Below are positions 3,030 to 31,429 of a DNA stretch of 33,168 nt, in pieces (the first letter of the stretch is position 1; every line of letters starts with the position of its first letter). The DNA is taken from the UHGV virus genome UHGV-0086211; one strand, written 5' to 3'. The DNA is from a virus. A model generated the notes under the pieces. The model made no database searches and was not told where the DNA came from. It saw only the letters and a program-made list of their open reading frames with translations. The position numbers were made by a program, and so were the translations under genes.

Positions 3030-4115
3030 GTGGGAAAAAATTTAATGACGCCGGAATTAGTAAACGAACGGGAGCGTAAAATTTCTGATTTTATCGTTAA
3101 ACAAAAGCAAACTTACGACTTCAAAATTCGCTATGCAGAAATAAGAGTACGCGAATTCATAAGAGAGTGCAATATTCGCGACTTAAACACTCATGTTTCT
3201 GTAGGCGGTCTTGACAGCATTACGCTGTATTTATTTATAAAATCGCTTGGATATAGCGTTCCGGGCGTATCTGTTTCAATACTTGAAGACAAGTCAATAC
3301 AAGAGATACATAAGCAGCTAGGCGTAACAATAATAAAGCCATATAAGAGCAAGACGCAAGTGATTAATGAATACGGGTTCCCTGTTTTATCTAAAGAAAT
3401 AGCGGCTAAGATTGAGCTGCTACAAAATCCGACAGAGAAGAACAAAACAGTAAGACACGCTATTGTCACAGGAGAAACAGGAGAGTACGGCGGCTTTCAA
3501 AAAAACAGTCGTATGAAAATGTCGCAAAAGTGGCTTGAAAAGTTCGGTGGTTATGCAAACGACTGCGAGGGTACAAACTATCAAACGCCGAATTTTAAGG
3601 TATCGTCGAAATGCTGCTACTATCTCAAAGAGAAGCCTTGCAACGACTGGGCAAAACAACATAACAGTGTTCCATTTTTGGGACTAATGGCTAGCGAGGG
3701 CGGACGACGTGCAAAATCACTAATGCTTAACGGCTGTAATTATTTCGGTAAATCTACCATCCGCTCAGCTCCGTTTGCTATTTTCTCGAGACAAGACATT
3801 TTACAGCTTGCCCTTGACCTAAATGTGCCAGTTCCTGAGATTTATGGAAGAATTGAGAAAGACGAGAACGGACTTTTGAGAACAACAGGAGCTCAAAGAA
3901 CTGGATGTAGTATGTGTGGGTTTGGCATACAACTCGAGAAAAGTCCAAACCGTTTTGAGCGGCTAAAAGCACATAATGAAAAGGAATGGGAATACTGGAT
4001 GTTTAAGTGCTGTACCGATGAAACGGGGGAAAAATACGGCTGGAGCAGAGTGTGCGACTATATCGGTGTTCCGTGTGGAATAGAAAAGGGAGAAGCAAAT
4101 GGAAAGATTCATTAA
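3030..4115 (+). CDS. PAPS/APS-reductase-family (PP-loop) protein
   Basis: PP-loop-like SVGGLDS, SKCCYYLKEKP and RTGCSMC motifs. Confidence 0.8.
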   Translation: MGKNLMTPELVNERERKISDFIVKQKQTYDFKIRYAEIRVREFIRECNIRDLNTHVSVGGLDSITLYLFIKSLGYSVPGVSVSILEDKSIQEIHKQLGVTIIKPYKSKTQVINEYGFPVLSKEIAAKIELLQNPTEKNKTVRHAIVTGETGEYGGFQKNSRMKMSQKWLEKFGGYANDCEGTNYQTPNFKVSSKCCYYLKEKPCNDWAKQHNSVPFLGLMASEGGRRAKSLMLNGCNYFGKSTIRSAPFAIFSRQDILQLALDLNVPVPEIYGRIEKDENGLLRTTGAQRTGCSMCGFGIQLEKSPNRFERLKAHNEKEWEYWMFKCCTDETGEKYGWSRVCDYIGVPCGIEKGEANGKIH

Positions 4116-15708: not shown

Positions 15709-17217
15709 ATGGAATTACTTGAATTTAAAAACAAAATATTAAAACTTTGTAATGTTTCAGAAGTAAAAGATATTGGCGAAGCTTTAATGAAAGTTGTATT
15801 AAATAACGAAACATATTTTTTTGACGAATACAACGAAATTGTCGATGATAGCAAAGATTGGTTACAAGCGTTGTGGCAGTATTACGAAGCAGATAGAGAA
15901 GAAAAGAAGCAAGACTTTACGCCAAAGAGTCTTGCTAAGTTAGTAACTGCATTAGCAGGAAATTGTAAAACACTTTATGACTGCTGCGGGGGAAGCGGCG
16001 CCTTGACTTTGCAAATGATTAAAAATCATAAAGTGGAAAATGTTTATATTGAAGAACTAGATAAAAATGTTATTCCGTTTTTATTATTCAATCTCTGCTT
16101 ACACAACGCAAACGGCTATGTTATTAACGGCGATGTGTTGAAGCAAGAAAAATTTAAAATTTATAAGCTAAGTAGTGACAAAAAATATAGTACGGTAAAA
16201 ATTGCGGATGATATGCCGAATTTTAAAGTCGATGTTGCGATTAGTAACCCACCGTATAACATCAAATGGCAACCACCAATGCTATTAGAAAATGATAGTC
16301 GATTTCCTGTTATACCTCCTGCTGGCAATGCTAACTATGCTTTTGTTTTGAACTGCTTAGCAAAAGCTGACAAGTCTGTTTTAATTTTGCCAAACGGAAT
16401 ATTTAATCAAGATAATGAAATTGATATAAGGAAGTACTTAGTTGATAATGACTTAATTGAAACGGTCATTGTTATGCCTGATAAAATGTTTGAAGTAACA
16501 AGTATTTCAACCTGTGTTTTGGTTTTAAATAAAAACAAATCACATAAAGGCGAGATTTGTTTTATTGACAGCCGTAAAAACTTTGTATTTGAAGAGCGAG
16601 AACAAAACGGCCAATTTGGTGGAAAATCTCACACAAAACGAACATATAAAAAATCGTATAATGTATTAGCTGATGAAAACATTAAAAAAATAATTGATGT
16701 GGTTGACGGTAGAAAAAATATTCCGGAATTTTCAGCCATAAAAACAAATAACGAAATTGCAAAAAATCAGTATATTTTTATTCCGTCAAAATATATAGAA
16801 TTTGAGGAAAAAGAACATAAGCACCGAGATTTTCAAGAAATAGCCGACAATATCAACTACATTACTAAAATGCAGAACGCTTGCAAATTAGTAATCAATG
16901 AGACGATTGCTAAAAAAATGGGGTTTGATATTCAGCTTTATAAAAATGAGTTCAAAAATTCAAATCAACTTGCAGATGAACAGTCTAAATTATTAGGCAT
17001 TAAGATTGAAAAGTCTGATTATATCCAATTTACCAAAAACAAAAATGAATTTATGTTCAAGTGTAACGATAAAGAGTTGTTGCCGGATATATTTATTCAT
17101 TTTTTAACAATATGGAAAAATCAGATTGCTTTACTTAATACAATGCAAAATCAATATTTATCAGAATTAAGGGACGCAATATTGCCAGATTTAATGAATG
17201 GTAAAATTGAATTATAA
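15709..17217 (+). CDS. N6-adenine DNA methyltransferase (HsdM-like) with HsdS-like C-terminal helix
   Basis: QDFTP, motif I YDCCGGSG, motif IV SNPPY; ends LSELRDAILPDLMNGKI; visibly AT-rich. Confidence 0.88.
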   Translation: MELLEFKNKILKLCNVSEVKDIGEALMKVVLNNETYFFDEYNEIVDDSKDWLQALWQYYEADREEKKQDFTPKSLAKLVTALAGNCKTLYDCCGGSGALTLQMIKNHKVENVYIEELDKNVIPFLLFNLCLHNANGYVINGDVLKQEKFKIYKLSSDKKYSTVKIADDMPNFKVDVAISNPPYNIKWQPPMLLENDSRFPVIPPAGNANYAFVLNCLAKADKSVLILPNGIFNQDNEIDIRKYLVDNDLIETVIVMPDKMFEVTSISTCVLVLNKNKSHKGEICFIDSRKNFVFEEREQNGQFGGKSHTKRTYKKSYNVLADENIKKIIDVVDGRKNIPEFSAIKTNNEIAKNQYIFIPSKYIEFEEKEHKHRDFQEIADNINYITKMQNACKLVINETIAKKMGFDIQLYKNEFKNSNQLADEQSKLLGIKIEKSDYIQFTKNKNEFMFKCNDKELLPDIFIHFLTIWKNQIALLNTMQNQYLSELRDAILPDLMNGKIEL

Positions 17218-19186: not shown

Positions 19187-20410
19187 ATGGAAATGAAAAA
19201 GTATTTTGAAAACAAAATTGAAACTCTGTTAAATAAGCGTACAGAGCTTAAAAACGGCATTGAAAACTTGTCGGCTGAGGAAATCAAGGACAGATTTTCA
19301 CAAATTGACAGTATTGACACAGAGATTGCCGACTGCAAAGCACAGCTTGCAGAAATTGAGAATGCTTGGCAGGCACAGCAGAAACCACAGCCGAAGGGCA
19401 GTGTGGATGTTAAGGGCACAGCAGGCGGCACAGCTGTAACAGATAAGTTCAATACAACTGAGTACAAGAACAAGTTTATGGATTTCTTCTGCCGCGGTAC
19501 AAAAATTAAAAACGAAGCCGGCATAACAACTACAACAGATGCGTCGGCTGTTATTCCTACCGAACTGTCAACCGAGATTATTCAAAAGGTTGAGAGTTAT
19601 GGCAACCTTTATGCTAAGGTTACAAAGACCAATATTAAGGTTGGCTACTCTATTCCAGTACTTTCACTGAAGCCAACAGCAACTTGGTTTGGCGAAGGTG
19701 CTACAACTGATGCACAGAAAATTAAGGCTGATGAAAAGATAACTTTCAACGCATATGGACTTGAAGTTAAAGTTAGCCGTTCACTATTTGTCGAAGTTAT
19801 GGCATATGACCAGTTCAAGGCATTGTTTGTGCCTCTGATGACTGAGGCAATTGTCAAGGCGATTGAAAGTGCTATTGTAAACGGCACCGGCACAGACAAG
19901 CCGCTGGGCATAACAAAGGACACAAGGGTGCCAACTGGCAATGTTATCTCACTAACAGAGGCAGAGTTTAAGTCCTGGGAGGCTTGGCAGAAGAAGGTTG
20001 TTGCTAAGATCAAGAAGTCTTACCAGAACGGCGAGTTCATTATGGAGCAAAGCACATACAGCGGTTATATCAATGGTATGGTAGACGCTGACGGTCAGCC
20101 TATAGCACGCACAAACTACGGTATTGACAACGGCGAGACTTACTATTTCGCAGGCAAGCACGTTGAAACTACCGAAGGGGATATTATTAAATCGTTTGAT
20201 AGTGCTGCTGTTGGCGATGTTGTTGCAATTTTCTGTGACCTCAAAAATTATGTTTTGAACAGCAATTTGCAGATTACCGCAAACGAATGGTACGACCACG
20301 ATACACACGAAACTAAAAACAATATGGTTCTTATCTGCGACGGTAAGCTTGCTGACACAAACGGCGTTTACCTGATTAAAAAGGCCGCAACTCCTAGCTC
20401 AGGTAAATAA
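19187..20410 (+). CDS. Major capsid protein (HK97 fold with N-terminal delta domain)
   Basis: Coiled-coil N-terminus, VIPTEL, IVNGTGTDKPLGI, DADGQPI; follows the protease. Confidence 0.93.
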   Translation: MEMKKYFENKIETLLNKRTELKNGIENLSAEEIKDRFSQIDSIDTEIADCKAQLAEIENAWQAQQKPQPKGSVDVKGTAGGTAVTDKFNTTEYKNKFMDFFCRGTKIKNEAGITTTTDASAVIPTELSTEIIQKVESYGNLYAKVTKTNIKVGYSIPVLSLKPTATWFGEGATTDAQKIKADEKITFNAYGLEVKVSRSLFVEVMAYDQFKALFVPLMTEAIVKAIESAIVNGTGTDKPLGITKDTRVPTGNVISLTEAEFKSWEAWQKKVVAKIKKSYQNGEFIMEQSTYSGYINGMVDADGQPIARTNYGIDNGETYYFAGKHVETTEGDIIKSFDSAAVGDVVAIFCDLKNYVLNSNLQITANEWYDHDTHETKNNMVLICDGKLADTNGVYLIKKAATPSSGK

Positions 20411-20422
20411 GGGTGATGTTCT

Positions 20423-21439
20423 ATGACGATTGACGAAATCGCAGTTAAAGTTTCATTACTTTTACAACGCTCAACTGATGAAAATTTCCTTTCTGTTCTG
20501 CCTCTGTATTGCACGGAGGCTCAACAGATTATAAAAAGTGCAGGTGTTAAAGACACTGTAGCGGAGAGTGCCAAAGCTGTTGGAGTTATAGCCCGTGGCG
20601 TCCTCGACCTGTGGAATTTTGGTGCCGGCGAGGGTAAGTTTTCACCGTTATTTTTTCAGCTTGTCGAACAGCTGAAATATGATGATGGTACCAACGGCAA
20701 GTTAATACTTGACGTTGAGCAAGGCGGCGGTTGGTTTAAGCTGAAATATACTGACGGCACCGAGAGCGAAGAAATACCTTGTGTCGGCAAGCCCGGTCCA
20801 CAAGGAGAACAGGGACCTAAGGGCGACAAAGGCGACACCGGCCCGAGAGGTCCTGCCGGTCCACAGGGTGAGCCTGGCAGCGACTATGTGCTCACAGATA
20901 AAGACAAGCAGGACATTGCAACCGTTGTTACTAGCGATTTGTCAAACAAGCTTGATAGTAAGCAAGACAAACTTATTGCAAGTAAAAACATTAAAACTAT
21001 CAATAATCAATCAATTTTAGGCGAAGGAAATATCAAAACGGAAAAAGAGTATAAAAGGGCTTATGTTCAAACAACAGAAGAAGTTAAGCAAATATTTCTT
21101 GAAACAGATGATTTTGATGTTTGTTTTTTAAATGTCTACACAAAAGGTATTTTATGTAAATTCAAGCCGTCTTATTATTACAAAAAAGCAACGAGCAGCT
21201 ATAAAATCTATACATACACAGCAGCTTACTCAGTACAATATGGTATATGTTTGAAAATTGAAAAACACCCAGCTACTTTTCCCTACAATGACTGTTCGTT
21301 TAGAGTTTATAGTAATGCTATTGCAACAATGAATCCTACATATACAACCGACGAAGCGAAAAATGGAATTACTATTACTGTATCATCAGATGCAGATGTA
21401 TTCCCTGTCGGAACAAAATTTGAAGTTTATTATAAATGA
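20423..21439 (+). CDS. Head-tail connector (gp6-like) fused to collagen repeat and fibre-like domain
   Basis: Residues 1-86 connector-like (IKSAGV...GVIARGVLDLWN...FSPLFFQLVEQL), directly after the capsid gene. 11 Gly-X-Y triplets, then DYVLTDKDKQDIA and KQDKL...NIKTINNQSILGEGNI fibre-like segments. Confidence 0.7.
   Translation: MTIDEIAVKVSLLLQRSTDENFLSVLPLYCTEAQQIIKSAGVKDTVAESAKAVGVIARGVLDLWNFGAGEGKFSPLFFQLVEQLKYDDGTNGKLILDVEQGGGWFKLKYTDGTESEEIPCVGKPGPQGEQGPKGDKGDTGPRGPAGPQGEPGSDYVLTDKDKQDIATVVTSDLSNKLDSKQDKLIASKNIKTINNQSILGEGNIKTEKEYKRAYVQTTEEVKQIFLETDDFDVCFLNVYTKGILCKFKPSYYYKKATSSYKIYTYTAAYSVQYGICLKIEKHPATFPYNDCSFRVYSNAIATMNPTYTTDEAKNGITITVSSDADVFPVGTKFEVYYK
20786..20884 (+). repeat. Collagen-like (Gly-X-Y)11 repeat
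   Basis: GKP GPQ GEQ GPK GDK GDT GPR GPA GPQ GEP GSD. Confidence 0.95.
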
Positions 21440-21451
21440 TGAGGTGCGAGT

Positions 21452-21628
21452 ATGAGAATTTGTGATAATGGCGTATATCGTGATATGACAGCCGATGAAG
21501 AGCGAAACTATAAAGAATTAATTTTGGCAAGCGATGTAAGTACAGAAGAAGATAAGCTAGAAAAACTCGAGCAAGAAATAACAGCAACCCAGGAGGCTCT
21601 ATGTGAACTTTATGAGTCGGTTGTATGA
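21452..21628 (+). CDS. 58-aa fibre-associated (XkdW-like) coiled-coil protein (not in ORF track)
   Basis: GAGGTG RBS; MRICDNGVYRDMTADEE...KLEKLEQEITATQEALCELYESVV. Confidence 0.7.
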   Translation: MRICDNGVYRDMTADEERNYKELILASDVSTEEDKLEKLEQEITATQEALCELYESVV

Positions 21629-21659: not shown

Positions 21660-21788
21660 GTGGCAGTAATTTACGCTACTCTTATTATAAAGGGTAAAAG
21701 AACTTTTAAGAGTGTGCCAAACAGGCTTAAGGGTGAAGTTAAAGAAATATTGATTTCACTGGAATGTGAAAATCTAGTGGAGGAGTGA
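21660..21788 (+). CDS. CD1375-family small protein
   Basis: AAGGAGGT RBS, GTG 21660, MAVIYATLIIKGKRTFKSVP..LK.EVKEIL. Confidence 0.8.
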   Translation: MAVIYATLIIKGKRTFKSVPNRLKGEVKEILISLECENLVEE

Positions 21789-21794
21789 TAACAA

Positions 21795-22793
21795 ATGGCT
21801 ATTACTAAAAAGCAAATGAAAAAGCTAGTAAGTATAGCTAAATCGCAAGTAGGTAACGGACCATATAAGTACCGCAAATGGTATTATGGCAGTGAGCAGT
21901 ATGGTGTTGCTTGGTGTGCAGTGTTCGTCAGCTGGTGTCTTGCTCAAGCAGGTATTACAGGCATAAAAACGGATGGAGCAGGGTGTTTCGCTCGAGAATA
22001 TCAGACACAGGGTAAATGGTATGAAAGCGAATATACATCATCATCTACAACGCCAAAAGCTAGTGACATCGTGACATTTACTTGGAACTATGCCGGCAGA
22101 TACACAAATCAAGATAGGTACTACAGCGACCACGTCGGCATCGTGTACGCTGTAGATAATACATACATCTATACTGTCGAGGGTAATGCAGGCAATAGTA
22201 ACGATACAAGTACAGTTAAACTAAAGGCGTATAATCGTACAAGCGGATGTATTAACGGATATTTCCGATTAAACACGGAAAGCGAGGTAGGCGAAATGAA
22301 TTTCAAAAAAGGCGATAAATCAGACGGGGTTTTGGCATATAAGTCATTGCTGCAGCAAGCCCAGAAATTGGGCATAATTAAGTCAAAGGTAGACAATACA
22401 AACAGCTTTGGCGGCGGTACTTACAAGGCAACTTTGGAGGTGCAGAGAAAATACAAGCTAGAAGTTGACGGAATAGCGGGCGTTAAGACTATAACAGCTT
22501 TGCGAAACGCTATAAATACAAAGATAACCGCAACGCCAAGGTTTAAGCAGTTAAAGGTTGGCGACTGGAATTTAGGCGTCGCTTGTTATAAAACCGTGTG
22601 TGATATAGCTAGACGACTTAAGCTTATCAACGCTAAGACGGATACTAAGCTAGGTTTTGGCGACGGTACCAGAGAGGCTACAAAGCAGATTCAGGAGCTT
22701 ATTGGCGAAAAAGAAACAGGTATTGTTACTGAATATACTGTTTCAAAAGCTAGAGTAATCATCAATAACGCTTTGGATAAGCAGCTGAAATGA
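21795..22793 (+). CDS. Endolysin: CHAP domain plus two peptidoglycan-binding repeats
   Basis: AWCAVFVSW, DHVGIV, TVEGN, then two repeats ending VQRKYKLEVDGIAGVKT and IQELIGEKETGIV. Confidence 0.92.
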   Translation: MAITKKQMKKLVSIAKSQVGNGPYKYRKWYYGSEQYGVAWCAVFVSWCLAQAGITGIKTDGAGCFAREYQTQGKWYESEYTSSSTTPKASDIVTFTWNYAGRYTNQDRYYSDHVGIVYAVDNTYIYTVEGNAGNSNDTSTVKLKAYNRTSGCINGYFRLNTESEVGEMNFKKGDKSDGVLAYKSLLQQAQKLGIIKSKVDNTNSFGGGTYKATLEVQRKYKLEVDGIAGVKTITALRNAINTKITATPRFKQLKVGDWNLGVACYKTVCDIARRLKLINAKTDTKLGFGDGTREATKQIQELIGEKETGIVTEYTVSKARVIINNALDKQLK

Positions 22794-23074
22794 GTGTGAT
22801 GTATTTGGAAGCAGTAATCGTGGCACTTATCAGCCTTGCAGGCTCTGCACTTGGCAGCTTGTTCGGTATAGTTGTTAATACTAAATTAACTAATTATCGC
22901 ATTGAGCAGCTCGAAATTCGAGTTAATAAACATAATAATTTAATTGAACGCACATACGAGCTTGAAAAAACAACTCGTGTTCAGGCGGAAAAAATCGCAG
23001 TAGCAAACCATCGCATTGAAAATTTAGAGAGGAGATATGAATACGAAAATGATAAATTGGCAAGTGAGATTTAA
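22790..23074 (+). CDS. Holin-associated membrane protein (N-terminal TM, coiled coil)
   Basis: Hydrophobic VIVALISLAGSALGSLFGIV, then YRIEQLE..VNKHNNLIERTY; lies between lysin and holin. Confidence 0.7.
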   Translation: MSVMYLEAVIVALISLAGSALGSLFGIVVNTKLTNYRIEQLEIRVNKHNNLIERTYELEKTTRVQAEKIAVANHRIENLERRYEYENDKLASEI

Positions 23075-23303
23075 AAACAAAAATTTCTGGCTAAGTTTTA
23101 TTCCGGCAGTTTTGTTATTAATACAAGTTATAGCAAGCGTTTTTGGTTTCAACTTTGATTTCGGCGACCTCGGCAACAAATTAATCGCGGTTATCAATGC
23201 GGTTTTTGTTGTCCTCTCCCTTCTCGGTGTTGTTACAGACCCAACAACCGCAGGAGTAAGCGACAGCGAGCGTGCATTGACTTACACACGGCCGAAGGAG
23301 TGA
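23049..23303 (+). CDS. Holin (phiLC3-like)
   Basis: MINWQVRFKNKNFW, two TM segments, GVVTDPTTAGVSDS. Alternative ATG at 23037. Confidence 0.92.
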   Translation: MINWQVRFKNKNFWLSFIPAVLLLIQVIASVFGFNFDFGDLGNKLIAVINAVFVVLSLLGVVTDPTTAGVSDSERALTYTRPKE

Positions 23304-23310
23304 GCGAGAA

Positions 23311-23655
23311 ATGGCATATAGTTTTCCACAACGGCTTAATACATTGTTTTGGTTAATGCTGCCAACAACCAAACGCACTGAATATGGCACGCTCGAAATA
23401 GGTTACACGAAAGGTAACGGCTTTTGGGCTTGTAAACGCACCTTTGGTGGCACAGAGGAAGTCGTCAACGGAGTAACTGTTATTAAGAACACAGCTGTAG
23501 TCGACTGCTATTTTAACGATAAGATAACAGCTAATTGCAGACTAAAAGACAAAGAAGGTCGCTTGTGGCGAATAATTACTTCGCCCGAAAACATCAACGG
23601 CGAAAATAAGTATTTGCAGTTTAAAATTGAAATTATTGAGGGCGTGAATAAATAA
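23311..23655 (+). CDS. Head closure / head-tail adaptor protein
   Basis: Beta-rich 114 aa, FGGTE...PENING; first gene of the closure-gp10-terminator-MTP series. Confidence 0.7.
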   Translation: MAYSFPQRLNTLFWLMLPTTKRTEYGTLEIGYTKGNGFWACKRTFGGTEEVVNGVTVIKNTAVVDCYFNDKITANCRLKDKEGRLWRIITSPENINGENKYLQFKIEIIEGVNK

Positions 23656-28603: not shown

Positions 28604-29416
28604 ATGATAAGATTTGGCGTTACTTTACCGAGCGGACAACGCAAATGGCTCGGCGAAGAGGGGCACAAGGTCATTTTCGCCAGCGGCTTTGACAGCGTAA
28701 CAGAGCTTGCTACATCTGCTTGTGCAAACGGTGTAGGTGTGAACATCGAAGGCGACAGTAAGCCGTCCAGGATTATGCAGCTGAAAATTGTTCCGAGCGG
28801 AAATGACGCTGAGGACGGAAGATATAAGCTGTTCAATTTAATGCCTTCTGGCACAGAAAGGCGTTTCTTAATACGCACTGATACAGAAAACTATTACATA
28901 TACGCCACTGTGACGGCGTTTGAAGTAAGTCCGTTTTCTGAACAAGTGCAGAAACAAATCGTAACAGTTACTCTAACAGCGACAAATCCACTGTTTTATC
29001 TATTTACACCAGAATCGCAAACAAAAACTATTAGTGCCACAAGCCCCGCTGTTTTCAGCTGTAATAATGACGGCGAAGCAACAGGATTTAAGCTCACGGT
29101 TAAGACCAACACTACGAGCAGCAATTCAATGATGAACCCAATCGTAAAACTTGGCTCTGACACTCTGAAATTTATATTAAATATTTCCACAGGCGGCTCG
29201 TTGATAATAAATACCGTGAAGGGCAGTAAATCTGCAAAGCTCACATATTCGGCCGCTGGCGGTACGGTCGTATCTGATGTTATTCCAAAAAGGGCTGACG
29301 GCTCGACATTTATACAGCTGCCTGCACGCTCGGTTTCAAAACTCACAGTTAATGTCGAAGGAACAGGAGCGGGAACCGTCACGCTCAACTATAGACAGTG
29401 CTTTGATTTTATATAA
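28604..29416 (+). CDS. Distal tail protein (Dit)
   Basis: Follows the tape measure; beta-rich; LTATNPLFY, NNDGEATG, IINTVKG. Confidence 0.75.
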   Translation: MIRFGVTLPSGQRKWLGEEGHKVIFASGFDSVTELATSACANGVGVNIEGDSKPSRIMQLKIVPSGNDAEDGRYKLFNLMPSGTERRFLIRTDTENYYIYATVTAFEVSPFSEQVQKQIVTVTLTATNPLFYLFTPESQTKTISATSPAVFSCNNDGEATGFKLTVKTNTTSSNSMMNPIVKLGSDTLKFILNISTGGSLIINTVKGSKSAKLTYSAAGGTVVSDVIPKRADGSTFIQLPARSVSKLTVNVEGTGAGTVTLNYRQCFDFI

Positions 29417-29435
29417 TTTTCGTGGGGTGAAAAAT

Positions 29436-30491
29436 ATGGAAATGTATGTTTATGATTTAAATTTCAAATATTGTGGAATTTTGGAAGATAGTCAATGCTC
29501 TAGTATCATTTGGACTACGAATTTTTATGATTGTGACGAGTTTGAAATCAGAATGCCGTATTTTGACGGCATTCTTGAATTGATTAAGCAAGACAGGCTA
29601 TTACAGAAAGATAGTTCTGACAGGGCTATGATTATTGAAAAAATATATATCACGCAGCAGTTTAACGATGGTCAAAAAACGCCTGTTGTTAAAATCGCAG
29701 GAAGAGGAGCGGACAGCTTGCTCGACCGCCGAGTTTCTCTCGAAAACAAAGCCTATTCGGGTGCTGCGGACTATATATCACGCCGCTTGGTAATTGAGAA
29801 CATCATCTCGCCGTCGAATACTACTAGAAAAATTGATACAGTTGCATTAGGCAGCTACCCTGCCCTGACCGGTAGTGGCGAACAGTTGACGCTCGGACAG
29901 AACATAGGCGAACTCACACGCTTAATGCTCAAAGAACAGAAATTAGGGAGCTATTTTAAAACTGATTTTTCTAACAAAAAAATGTTATACACGATTTATG
30001 CAGGAAAAGATAGAACGAAGGAAAACCTGAACAAAGTCGAATTTTCGCCCGACCTTGATAATTTCTCACAAATTGAATACTATTCAGATGCTGCAACTCA
30101 GTATAATATATGTCTTGCAAAAACGGGCCCCGATGTTAACGACAACTGGACTATTGTTCCCGGTTCTAATGAAAATCTTGGTTCCGGAACTAAACGCCGC
30201 GAGGTGTGGGCAGACCTTAGCAGCTACGATGTTTCAGGCGCAGGCTCTTCAACGGCTGTTGATGTGTTAGTTTCGCCTTTGGCAGAACAAGAACTCGCAA
30301 AGAAAATAACGGAAGAAGCTATCACAGGAAATATCATTGACGGAATTCTCTATACTTACGGTAAGAATTATGAAGTTGGCGATATAGTAATATTAAACGA
30401 CGGTTACAAACATAAGCTGAATAAGCGACTTGTACAAATGATAGAGTATTATCAAAATGGGCGAAAAACCTTAACGCCGACTTTTGAATAA
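29436..30491 (+). CDS. Tail tip hub (ReqiPepy6 Gp37-like / Tal-like)
   Basis: SIIWTT.FY..DEFEI, AMIIE, LLDRR, GKDRT, FSPDLDN, YGKNYEVGDIV...TPTF. GGGGTGA RBS before ATG 29436. Confidence 0.85.
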   Translation: MEMYVYDLNFKYCGILEDSQCSSIIWTTNFYDCDEFEIRMPYFDGILELIKQDRLLQKDSSDRAMIIEKIYITQQFNDGQKTPVVKIAGRGADSLLDRRVSLENKAYSGAADYISRRLVIENIISPSNTTRKIDTVALGSYPALTGSGEQLTLGQNIGELTRLMLKEQKLGSYFKTDFSNKKMLYTIYAGKDRTKENLNKVEFSPDLDNFSQIEYYSDAATQYNICLAKTGPDVNDNWTIVPGSNENLGSGTKRREVWADLSSYDVSGAGSSTAVDVLVSPLAEQELAKKITEEAITGNIIDGILYTYGKNYEVGDIVILNDGYKHKLNKRLVQMIEYYQNGRKTLTPTFE

Positions 30492-30500
30492 CGGTATAAG

Positions 30501-30534
30501 AAAGCCCCTCAGTGACTGAGGGGCTAGTTTTTTT
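30501..30534. terminator. Terminator between the late operon and the convergent accessory operon
   Basis: AGCCCCTCAG-TGA-CTGAGGGGCT followed by a T-run. Confidence 0.85.
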
Positions 30535-31429
30535 ATATTTTGGTATCGGGTATTTTTATCGTTGAATATTCGCCGTTTTCTTGATTGTATAACCTAAATT
30601 GTCCGCCTGCCGAAGACACAGACAAGTCTGTGTCAACAAAATCGTCATTTATCTGCGGGTCAATAAGCGACTGCGTATCACCTTGTACATAATCTGACAA
30701 AATGATAAAATTATAAGTTTTTTTGTTTAGCGTTATATAATCGCATTGTATTAAGTAAGTATCTTTTGTTTTGTTTTCAACAGTAAAATAAGTGTTTAAA
30801 TCATCATAGCTTGGCTCTACTTTTACAAAATAAAAAATAAATTTATCGTCTTCGTAAATCTTCGTCCCCACTGTTGCCTCCGTCGGAGCTTCTGTAGGAG
30901 CTTCTGTCGGAGCTTCTGTAGGAGCTTCTGTTGGTGGTTCTGTTGGTGGTTCGGTAGGGGCTTCGGTCAAAGGCTCTGCCGGCGGAGCTTCAGTCGGTGG
31001 GTCGTTGAAGAATTTGTTAGCTGTGATTTTCTTGCCGTTCAGCATAATTTCTGTAACTATCAAATAATTACTTGCCGACCTGGTACTTCTTTGTGTGTCG
31101 AATTTTCCGTAAAAAGTCGCCACATCCCCGCTGTGACTTTCAAAATAATATTCCGCCGCTTCCGGAGTGCTCCGTTCTGGCTTAAACTGTGCGTACCAAG
31201 TGTTGTATTCGTCCTTGCTTTCTGCGACAAGAACAATTACGATATACCCGTCTTCGTCCTGGTATGCATACGAAATTTTACCCGTTGCACTCACTAAACC
31301 GTCATAACCTATTAACTCGCTACGCTCTGCCGTTGTGATGTCCCTAACGCCGCTGTTGCTGCCGTTACAGCCTGCACAAGATACGCAAATAAGCGCTGCT
31401 GTTGTTATGATTGCTAATAATTTTTTCAT
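30533..31429 (-). CDS. Lipoprotein with Pro/Thr/Glu linker (candidate superinfection exclusion)
   Basis: MKK, hydrophobic stretch and CAGC lipobox; two globular domains separated by TEAP/TEPP repeats; AGGAGG RBS. Confidence 0.8.
   Translation of the reverse strand: MKKLLAIITTAALICVSCAGCNGSNSGVRDITTAERSELIGYDGLVSATGKISYAYQDEDGYIVIVLVAESKDEYNTWYAQFKPERSTPEAAEYYFESHSGDVATFYGKFDTQRSTRSASNYLIVTEIMLNGKKITANKFFNDPPTEAPPAEPLTEAPTEPPTEPPTEAPTEAPTEAPTEAPTEATVGTKIYEDDKFIFYFVKVEPSYDDLNTYFTVENKTKDTYLIQCDYITLNKKTYNFIILSDYVQGDTQSLIDPQINDDFVDTDLSVSSAGGQFRLYNQENGEYSTIKIPDTKI
30872..31000 (-). repeat. 12-bp tandem repeats encoding (TEAP/TEPP)n
   Basis: About ten degenerate GGAGCTTCTGTN-type units. Confidence 0.9.

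Follow-up and report, generated by a model that had tools for sequence, protein, structure and literature searches.

The window analysed here, a stretch of 33,168 nucleotides (virus genome UHGV-0086211), holds the genome of a temperate siphophage. It has genes for a serine recombinase, a repressor, RecE/RecT and replication; terminase, portal, ClpP-type protease and capsid genes are followed by the neck, tail tube, tape measure, Dit and Tal genes. We treated the genome as presumably complete, because a second record (G000, 33,170 bases) contains this sequence with a different starting point, as a circular assembly would give. One relative, L082, is a prophage integrated in Oscillospiraceae bacterium LCP25S3_E10, with 84-88% nucleotide identity to the window across the structural genes. 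The window also encodes an N6-adenine methyltransferase between terminase and portal (15709-17217), which is absent there in L082, and a protein with a PAPS-reductase domain in the early region (3030-4115). Scans of the window for promoters and terminators were no better than chance, and public sequencing runs contained just 7-8% of its words and no more than short contigs. The features discussed below are the following.

19187..20410, plus strand: HK97-type major capsid protein, upstream neighbour of the fusion (PF05065, 82.9 bits; phrog_10)
20423..21439, plus strand: fusion ORF, made of the next five segments
20423..20680 (residues 1-86), plus strand: gp6/gp15-type head-tail adaptor domain, a helical bundle, supported by homologs, gene slot and fold
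20681..20785 (residues 87-121), plus strand: conserved linker, inside several PHROG fibre matches
20786..20884 (residues 122-154), plus strand: (Gly-X-Y)11 collagen stalk, by triplet count
20885..21040 (residues 155-206), plus strand: helix and short beta motif, predicted trimer interface (from the model and its interface residues)
21041..21439 (residues 207-338), plus strand: exchangeable low-GC beta-sandwich tip, type A, a putative glycan-binding head
21452..21628, plus strand: 58-aa fibre-associated small gene, which follows the same tips in L112, L115, L116 and L117
21603..21788, plus strand: CD1375-like small protein (PF23792, E 5e-4; phrog_1382, E 2e-14)
21795..22793, plus strand: CHAP endolysin with a peptidoglycan-binding domain, displaced into the neck module (PF05257, PF01471)
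22790..23074, plus strand: small membrane-anchored lysis-cassette gene, weakly XhlA-like (PF10779, E 0.004, below the cut-off; phrog_1863)
23037..23303, plus strand: holin, last gene of the relocated block (PF04531, 103 bits)
23311..23655, plus strand: head-closure (gp16-like) protein, from which point the neck genes are in their usual order again (PF05521, 30 bits, above the cut-off; phrog_25)
28604..29416, plus strand: Dit, 270 aa, without a large insertion (phrog_33)
29277..30491, plus strand: short Tal (hub), last gene of the late operon (PF14594)

The fusion ORF is a single open frame of 338 codons with the major capsid gene (19187-20410) upstream and the head-closure gene (23311-23655) downstream, as described in the first-pass annotation, which had placed an uninterrupted 338-aa ORF in the connector slot. 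At the junction between adaptor and fibre, both other frames carry stops and the coding frame carries none. The frame is open near 20680, the same fusion occurs in 36 protein clusters, and a contig of an unrelated public run covers 20506-20741 with one letter different and no gap (weak evidence, at depth 2). No slippery heptamer was found near the junction, and internal in-frame starts occur only at 156, 173, 277 and 303, none with a clear ribosome-binding site. A short stand-alone adaptor, made by an internal start or a programmed frameshift, has no supporting signal in the fusion ORF.

The N-terminal 88 or 90 residues of the window protein matched no Pfam, PHROG or NCBIfam model directly; hence, the identification of the adaptor rests on homologs and on fold. 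Residues 1-90 are 41-44% identical to stand-alone proteins of 87-103 aa, and the stand-alone homolog of L002 passes the cut-off of PF05135 (34.4 bits vs 21.2). Homologs that match adaptor family models are 30-46% identical to the window domain. Among 85 aligned members of this adaptor subfamily, 67 matched PF05135 and 24 matched TIGR01560 (E ≤ 0.01). Across 104 loci encoding the subfamily, the capsid gene was at most 1.5 kb upstream in 97 of the 98 loci where it was found, and the head-closure gene at most 100 nt downstream in 80 of 98. A 92-aa member occupies the same gene slot in the cultured Butyrivibrio virus Bo-Finn. The adaptor of the window sits directly after the capsid gene, and head closure comes after the inserted block.

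The structure model of the adaptor domain (pLDDT 92) was matched by VIA exclusively to phage neck or portal-tail chains at ranks 1 to 35. The best match had a Z of 8.5 (rmsd 3.2, 86 aligned) and HK97 gp6 a Z of 6.6 (rmsd 3.3, 84 aligned), single values that are modest and common among helical bundles. With the same model Foldseek returned nothing significant (HK97 gp6 at rank 18, E 6.3, TM 0.61). The adaptor profile had no real match in a sequence search of the PDB, where the best hit was a designed bundle and an "adaptor protein" had an E of 0.87. Homology, gene slot and predicted fold together support a gp6/gp15-type adaptor, and the connector-like N-terminus proposed at first is borne out by this indirect route. 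The dN/dS of the adaptor was 0.02-0.16 in five of six comparisons (the sixth pair is identical), which indicates purifying selection. The ORFs of the window that were scanned include no further gene for an adaptor or a fibre.

The linker is 97% identical in five close relatives and 57% identical in one distant relative. Several PHROG fibre matches overlap it (for example phrog_13892 from residue 109 and phrog_17587 from residue 100), and it is likely to be a beta-hairpin unit like those that border the collagen of fibres. The stalk has exactly the 11 consecutive Gly-X-Y triplets claimed earlier (residues 122-154); its PF01391 score, 25.5 bits, is slightly below the cut-off of 27.2. The segment after the stalk (residues 155-206) is also present in fibres with other anchors, and it is here that tip swaps cross over. 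The fibre part was proposed to be trimeric, and a three-copy prediction for residues 155-338 scored 0.77, against 0.04 for the best control, with at least 90% contact agreement between runs and a partner pLDDT of at least 76. The score mark used was reached by 20 of 30 known homo-pairs and by one of 23 single chains, counts that apply only roughly here. These residues are therefore predicted to form a homotrimer.

The tip has a GC content of 0.31, vs 0.40 for the genome. The monomer model of residues 155-338 (mean pLDDT 52) has a helix at positions 5-22, i.e., residues 159-176, and then beta strands. Its best match, for a low-confidence model, was a jelly-roll of the galactose-binding-like kind (Z 7.4, rmsd 2.8, 91 aligned), followed by CBM47, CBM32 and discoidin rows at Z 5.3-6.4. 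Foldseek found nothing in the PDB at E ≤ 0.001, and in BFVD just uncharacterised or loosely named phage proteins. Direct family scans of the tip gave no match, its Atlas matches were all below 0.9, and the tip alignment, used as a query against viral contigs, recovered none of them. Glycan binding stays a guess because the tip model is weak and the fold matches are all below Z 8 or not significant; they point to a common fold and to no function. Within 21100-21300, the changes in tip classes A and B are concentrated at a few positions and in many cases replace Asn, a pattern like that of diversifying receptor sites. None of the ORFs scanned in the window was recognised as a reverse transcriptase. 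In L002, a phage with a stand-alone adaptor, an ORF upstream of the packaging genes (394-1437) looks by eye like a reverse transcriptase, which we take to be of the DGR type.

We searched for homologs with and without the fusion. Using residues 1-92 as query, 36 of 116 candidate clusters among proteins of 185-592 aa share the N-terminus (63-100% identity), so the fusion is no assembly accident. Among proteins of 50-161 aa, three of six candidates matched, none above 55% identity. At least five Gly-X-Y triplets were present in 35 of the 36 fused clusters (range 5-24). The 37 fused proteins, window included, fall into tip classes C (18), A (7), A' (4), B (4) and D (1); the other three, the distant members P0034-P0036, are short and have no globular tip. 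The six lineage representatives form one clade (support 0.986). The post-collagen module had a dN/dS of about 0.3-0.4 in five of six pairs, the remaining pair being identical. Judged by these sequences, the adaptor-collagen fusion is a trait of the lineage, and the fusion first noticed in one genome recurs, conserved and under selection, in 36 clusters. In 50,697 records we found no cultured phage that has the fusion; three of these records match the adaptor part only.

Tips are exchanged between otherwise similar genomes. Across their structural regions the window and L001 share about 96% identity, with the exception of 21030-21562, which takes in the tip and the first part of the 58-aa gene: the two genomes have different tips and a lysin region that is again about 96% identical. 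Comparisons between tip classes A, B, C and D by hhalign gave probabilities of at most 2%, with shallow profiles that leave room for kinship. Type A tips that are 86-90% identical, and A' tips at 49% identity, occur on proteins with unrelated N-termini. No model matched these N-termini, which we presume to be BppU-like. The A' module of L112, which is anchored on the adaptor, has the same nucleotides as that of L115, which is on another anchor (although the left end of L112 may be a chimera). Behind type C tips lies a gene for 197 aa (L082:10851-11444, L114:1135-1797). Among named Atlas clusters, ConA-like lectins come closest to it (0.94, with just 108-112 features in common; a lead), and its product is possibly a separate lectin head docking on the type C tip.

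The same tips lead to the usual site of tail fibre genes. In L116 and L117, fibres that have A' and B tips are encoded downstream of Dit, Tal and other tail genes, and these fibres are followed by the same small gene, the CD1375-like gene and the CHAP lysin. The fibre cargo of the adaptor would thus come from the end of the late operon, and the C-terminal part described at first as fibre-like indeed has tips in common with fibre genes at the post-Tal site. The beginning of the window's 58-aa gene varies along with the tip. This gene matched phrog_18126 (function unknown, E 9e-4) and had no Pfam match at E ≤ 0.05, XkdW included, an absence that weighs little in so short a protein. The CD1375-like gene, which probably starts at the GTG at 21660, scored 20.4 bits, below the cut-off of 27. 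The first-pass annotation had named the two small genes XkdW-like and CD1375-like: the second name stands as a match below the cut-off, and the first is not borne out. The rearrangement is larger than was noticed at first: the fibre took the lysis cassette along, and baseplate genes no longer follow Tal.

The end of the tail module is correspondingly bare. The Dit-slot genes of relatives encode 265-423 aa (median 284, n = 66), and Tal has about 356 aa, vs a median of 371 in relatives; by their lengths, Tal and Dit have no compensating extensions. The gene after Tal is on the opposite strand in the window and in G001, G002 and G003, whereas a further same-strand gene, mostly of one baseplate-type family, follows Tal in 48 of the 51 relatives with at least 600 bases beyond it. 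The post-Tal baseplate gene of L116, used as query without a positive control, was not found in G001-G003, a weak result. A lipoprotein-like gene with a Pro/Thr/Glu/Ala-rich repeat (window 30533-31429, minus strand) is conserved right after Tal in G001 and G002. It matched no family, and by analogy we presume that it may act in superinfection exclusion. In the distant member G003, whose terminase and tail tube are 70% and 46% identical, an adaptor-collagen gene for 190 aa precedes a homolog of one of the L116 tail genes, and lysin and holin lie directly before head closure. These loci are spread over three contigs of one bin, and their linkage is inferred. Since G003 has both the adaptor-collagen gene and the lysin and holin before head closure, the rearrangement is probably old.

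Extensions of the adaptor are not confined to this lineage. A search of 1.84 billion representatives with the adaptor profile retrieved 416 proteins at E ≤ 0.001. We took a census of 143 of the 150 matches listed, leaving out six lineage members and one repeat protein. Among these listed matches, 59 of 143 extend at least 40 residues past the adaptor, 32 at least 100, and five hold at least four G-X-Y triplets. Clustering at 50% inflates the share of extensions, and extensions of at least 90 residues occur in only five of 100 non-lineage loci. The cargo of 44 scanned proteins from the same matches includes collagen, Ig-like domains of the SbsC-type and CHB_HEX_C kinds, BspA/DUF285 repeats and a polysaccharide deacetylase. 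The collagen-fused adaptors may have separate origins: the tree needs four changes for ten rows, but an AU test did not reject a single clade (p 0.33). Long extensions required 21 changes on a FastTree of 148 rows, vs 33.9 for shuffles, on about 86 columns only. Scans for the genome context of P0126, P0056 and P0148 (collagen or LRR adaptors) gave matches to the cargo only and no adaptor.

Several of these loci are worth describing. Adaptors with C-terminal domains of 100-226 aa are encoded at L005:4829-5521, L019:6612-7304, L038:9938-10498 (SbsC-type Ig-like) and L094:8767-9705; the first three genomes keep a gene right after Tal, and L094 has a post-Tal gene after holin and lysin. P0075, P0120, P0148 and P0172 are adaptors that carry either a polysaccharide deacetylase (838 aa) or repeats of the BspA/DUF285 type; no genome context was retrieved for them. 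Three loci, L035:7645-9616, L042:5740-7154 and L087:9932-11503, encode an adaptor with a short acidic motif at its end, and a fibre-like gene for 240-360 aa with a similar terminal motif, together with a gene for about 95 aa, lies between adaptor and head closure. The products of these genes possibly dock tail to head in a chain, giving neck fibres that are held together non-covalently. A like terminal motif occurs in ten representatives.

Neck fibres are already known as separate proteins. The window protein resembles adaptors of the HK97 gp6/SPP1 gp15 type (Ad1; PF05135, TIGR01560) in gene slot, homology and helical-bundle fold, but these are single domains of about 100-115 aa, to which it adds 250 fibre residues, and their genes have no lysis cassette between adaptor and head closure. 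The neck passage structure (NPS) of lactococcal phages (TP901-1, 936 group) is similar in design, being described as trimeric neck fibres with a near-invariant anchor and exchangeable binding domains (PMC6669499, PMC10684548); near-identical N-termini are reported with seven C-terminal groups (PMC6669499). In these accounts the NPS is a separate protein with a BppU-like beta-sandwich anchor and a coiled-coil stalk, modelled as 6x3, and it coexists with a baseplate receptor-binding protein. In the window, the adaptor itself is the anchor, the stalk is collagen, there would be at most four trimers, and no baseplate fibre gene was found. Its N-terminus, an all-helical adaptor, also differs from the BppU-like beta-sandwich that defines the NPS (PMC6669499).

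The phi29 gp12 appendages, the T4 collar and whiskers, XM1 gp40 and the Bas63 collar-whisker likewise place fibres at the head-tail junction, and those of phi29 recognise host wall teichoic acid (PMC9863714, PMC12609058). Unlike the window fibre, all are encoded by genes of their own and attach to the neck of podo- or myophages without being fused to the adaptor. Siphophage SPP1 displays a collagen-like trimer, gp12, on its virion, but it is described as a non-essential protein of 64 aa that binds the capsid surface and is encoded by a separate gene upstream of the capsid gene (PMC6316719). Nocturne116, a c2-like Lactococcus phage, is reported to have an all-helical adaptor and a tail tip without typical receptor-binding proteins, but its adaptor is described as a plain 96-aa protein without a fibre (PMC13595954). 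In titles and abstract openings, with few subscription journals covered, we found no published adaptor-fibre fusion. This case contributes a seemingly complete genome of a tailed phage that combines the fusion with a relocated lysis cassette, the loss of post-Tal genes and ongoing tip exchange.

Connectors of the gp6/gp15 type are proteins of about 100 aa that form 12-mer rings, and collagen is trimeric. By arithmetic on these stoichiometries, a ring of the window protein would carry at most four trimers. The adaptors of NF5 and Nocturne116 are reported in twelve copies with a C-terminal arm or helix on the portal clip (PMC12917162, PMC13595954), an arrangement also given for solved adaptors in PMC12609058. 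Because the C-terminal helix or arm of solved adaptors binds the portal clip, the extension would, by analogy, emerge at the head-neck junction. The display of fibres at the neck as such is, we think, quite probable.

From this we propose how the phage may work. In an ancestral rearrangement, the terminal part of the late operon would have been inserted at the 3' end of the adaptor gene, so that the adaptor took the place of the anchor that the fibre once had; the genes of the baseplate would have been lost or moved elsewhere. Once the DNA is packaged, a set of twelve adaptors would attach to the portal clip with their C-termini on the portal-facing side, and neighbouring subunits would zip, three by three, into collagen trimers. 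On presumed rise values, the collagen would measure about 9 nm and the tail about 147 nm; we estimate the whole whisker at 20-25 nm. The whisker is far shorter than the tail and would therefore not act at the tail tip as an ejection trigger; without that reach, its likely role is a first, reversible capture, with Dit-Tal doing the final step. Whiskers of about 20-25 nm would hold the virion on the cell wall while the irreversible step is left to the bare Dit-Tal tip, which the flexible tail would carry to the cell surface. New tips would arrive by recombination at the conserved helix motif, from other phages of the same hosts. We lean, by a little, towards the adaptor-fibre of the neck ring being the primary, host-selective adhesin of the phage, making the first contact with surface sugars.

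The whiskers might instead be accessory, an adsorption aid or a hold on mucus or biofilm, while Dit-Tal sets the host range by binding a protein receptor. The lactococcal NPS is a precedent, with weak cell binding and a non-essential role reported in TP901-1 (PMC6669499), and Nocturne116 has a minimal tail tip (PMC13595954). The whisker's reach is short, members without a globular tip exist, and the donor fibres of L116 and L117, which lie just before the small genes and the lysin, may themselves be neck-passage proteins. However, the NPS-bearing 936 phages also have a baseplate receptor-binding protein, none of which was found in the window genome; Tal and Dit have gained no extensions; and the tip cassette is the chief difference between close relatives that share about 96% nucleotide identity. 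On balance we consider an accessory role unlikely.

It is improbable that the protein is a precursor, cut after the adaptor or kept at full length in only some subunits of an ordinary ring, with the fibre released or docked elsewhere. The phage does encode a ClpP-type prohead protease, and sorting twelve chains into four trimers right under the capsid may be sterically costly. Yet the linker is as conserved as the adaptor, no internal start or frameshift signal was found, and the fibre part, having no N-terminal anchor like that of its homologs, would have nothing to dock by; besides, the C-terminal domains on many adaptors of the subfamily suggest that this terminus tolerates cargo. We give very little credence to a third explanation, that the tip is a tolerated but unused passenger of recombination driven by exchange of the adjacent endolysin cassette. 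The tip, small genes and lysin do move as one block (blastn between the window and L116/L117, L001 and L117, L112 and L115), but the frame is open in 36 of 36 clusters with length changes in whole triplets, the tips are complete domains with a dN/dS of about 0.3, and the window and L001 differ in tip while sharing the lysin region at about 96%. Finally, an assembly chimera or a missed stop codon is largely refuted, even if L112, which starts with an unrelated host-like gene, illustrates that single metagenome contigs can be chimeric: the fusion occurs in 36 clusters from several sources, with the genes arranged alike in one provirus record and in the genome of a named bacterium, and with synonymous divergence across the junction.

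The reading of the adaptor-fibre as the primary adhesin has wider consequences, which we put forward tentatively and as a whole. The entire host-recognition apparatus may have moved from the tail tip to the neck, with the baseplate dropped; four covalently anchored trimers on a twelve-fold ring may set the host range by tip exchange; and the C-terminus of the adaptor may be, across a large subfamily, an unrecognised display site for collagen fibres and for Ig-like, leucine-rich-repeat and polysaccharide-deacetylase cargo. An essential twelve-fold ring that sorts into trimers would be an unusual assembly problem, and the L082 prophage in an Oscillospiraceae genome gives an experimental route. 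If the adaptor terminus does tolerate large natural cargo, it would be a candidate display site for phage engineering. The host range of siphophages is normally read from the genes after Tal. In this phage those genes are absent, and the only fibre is hidden in the connector slot, under the label "collagen-like" or "hypothetical"; pipelines for annotation and host prediction would therefore miss it.
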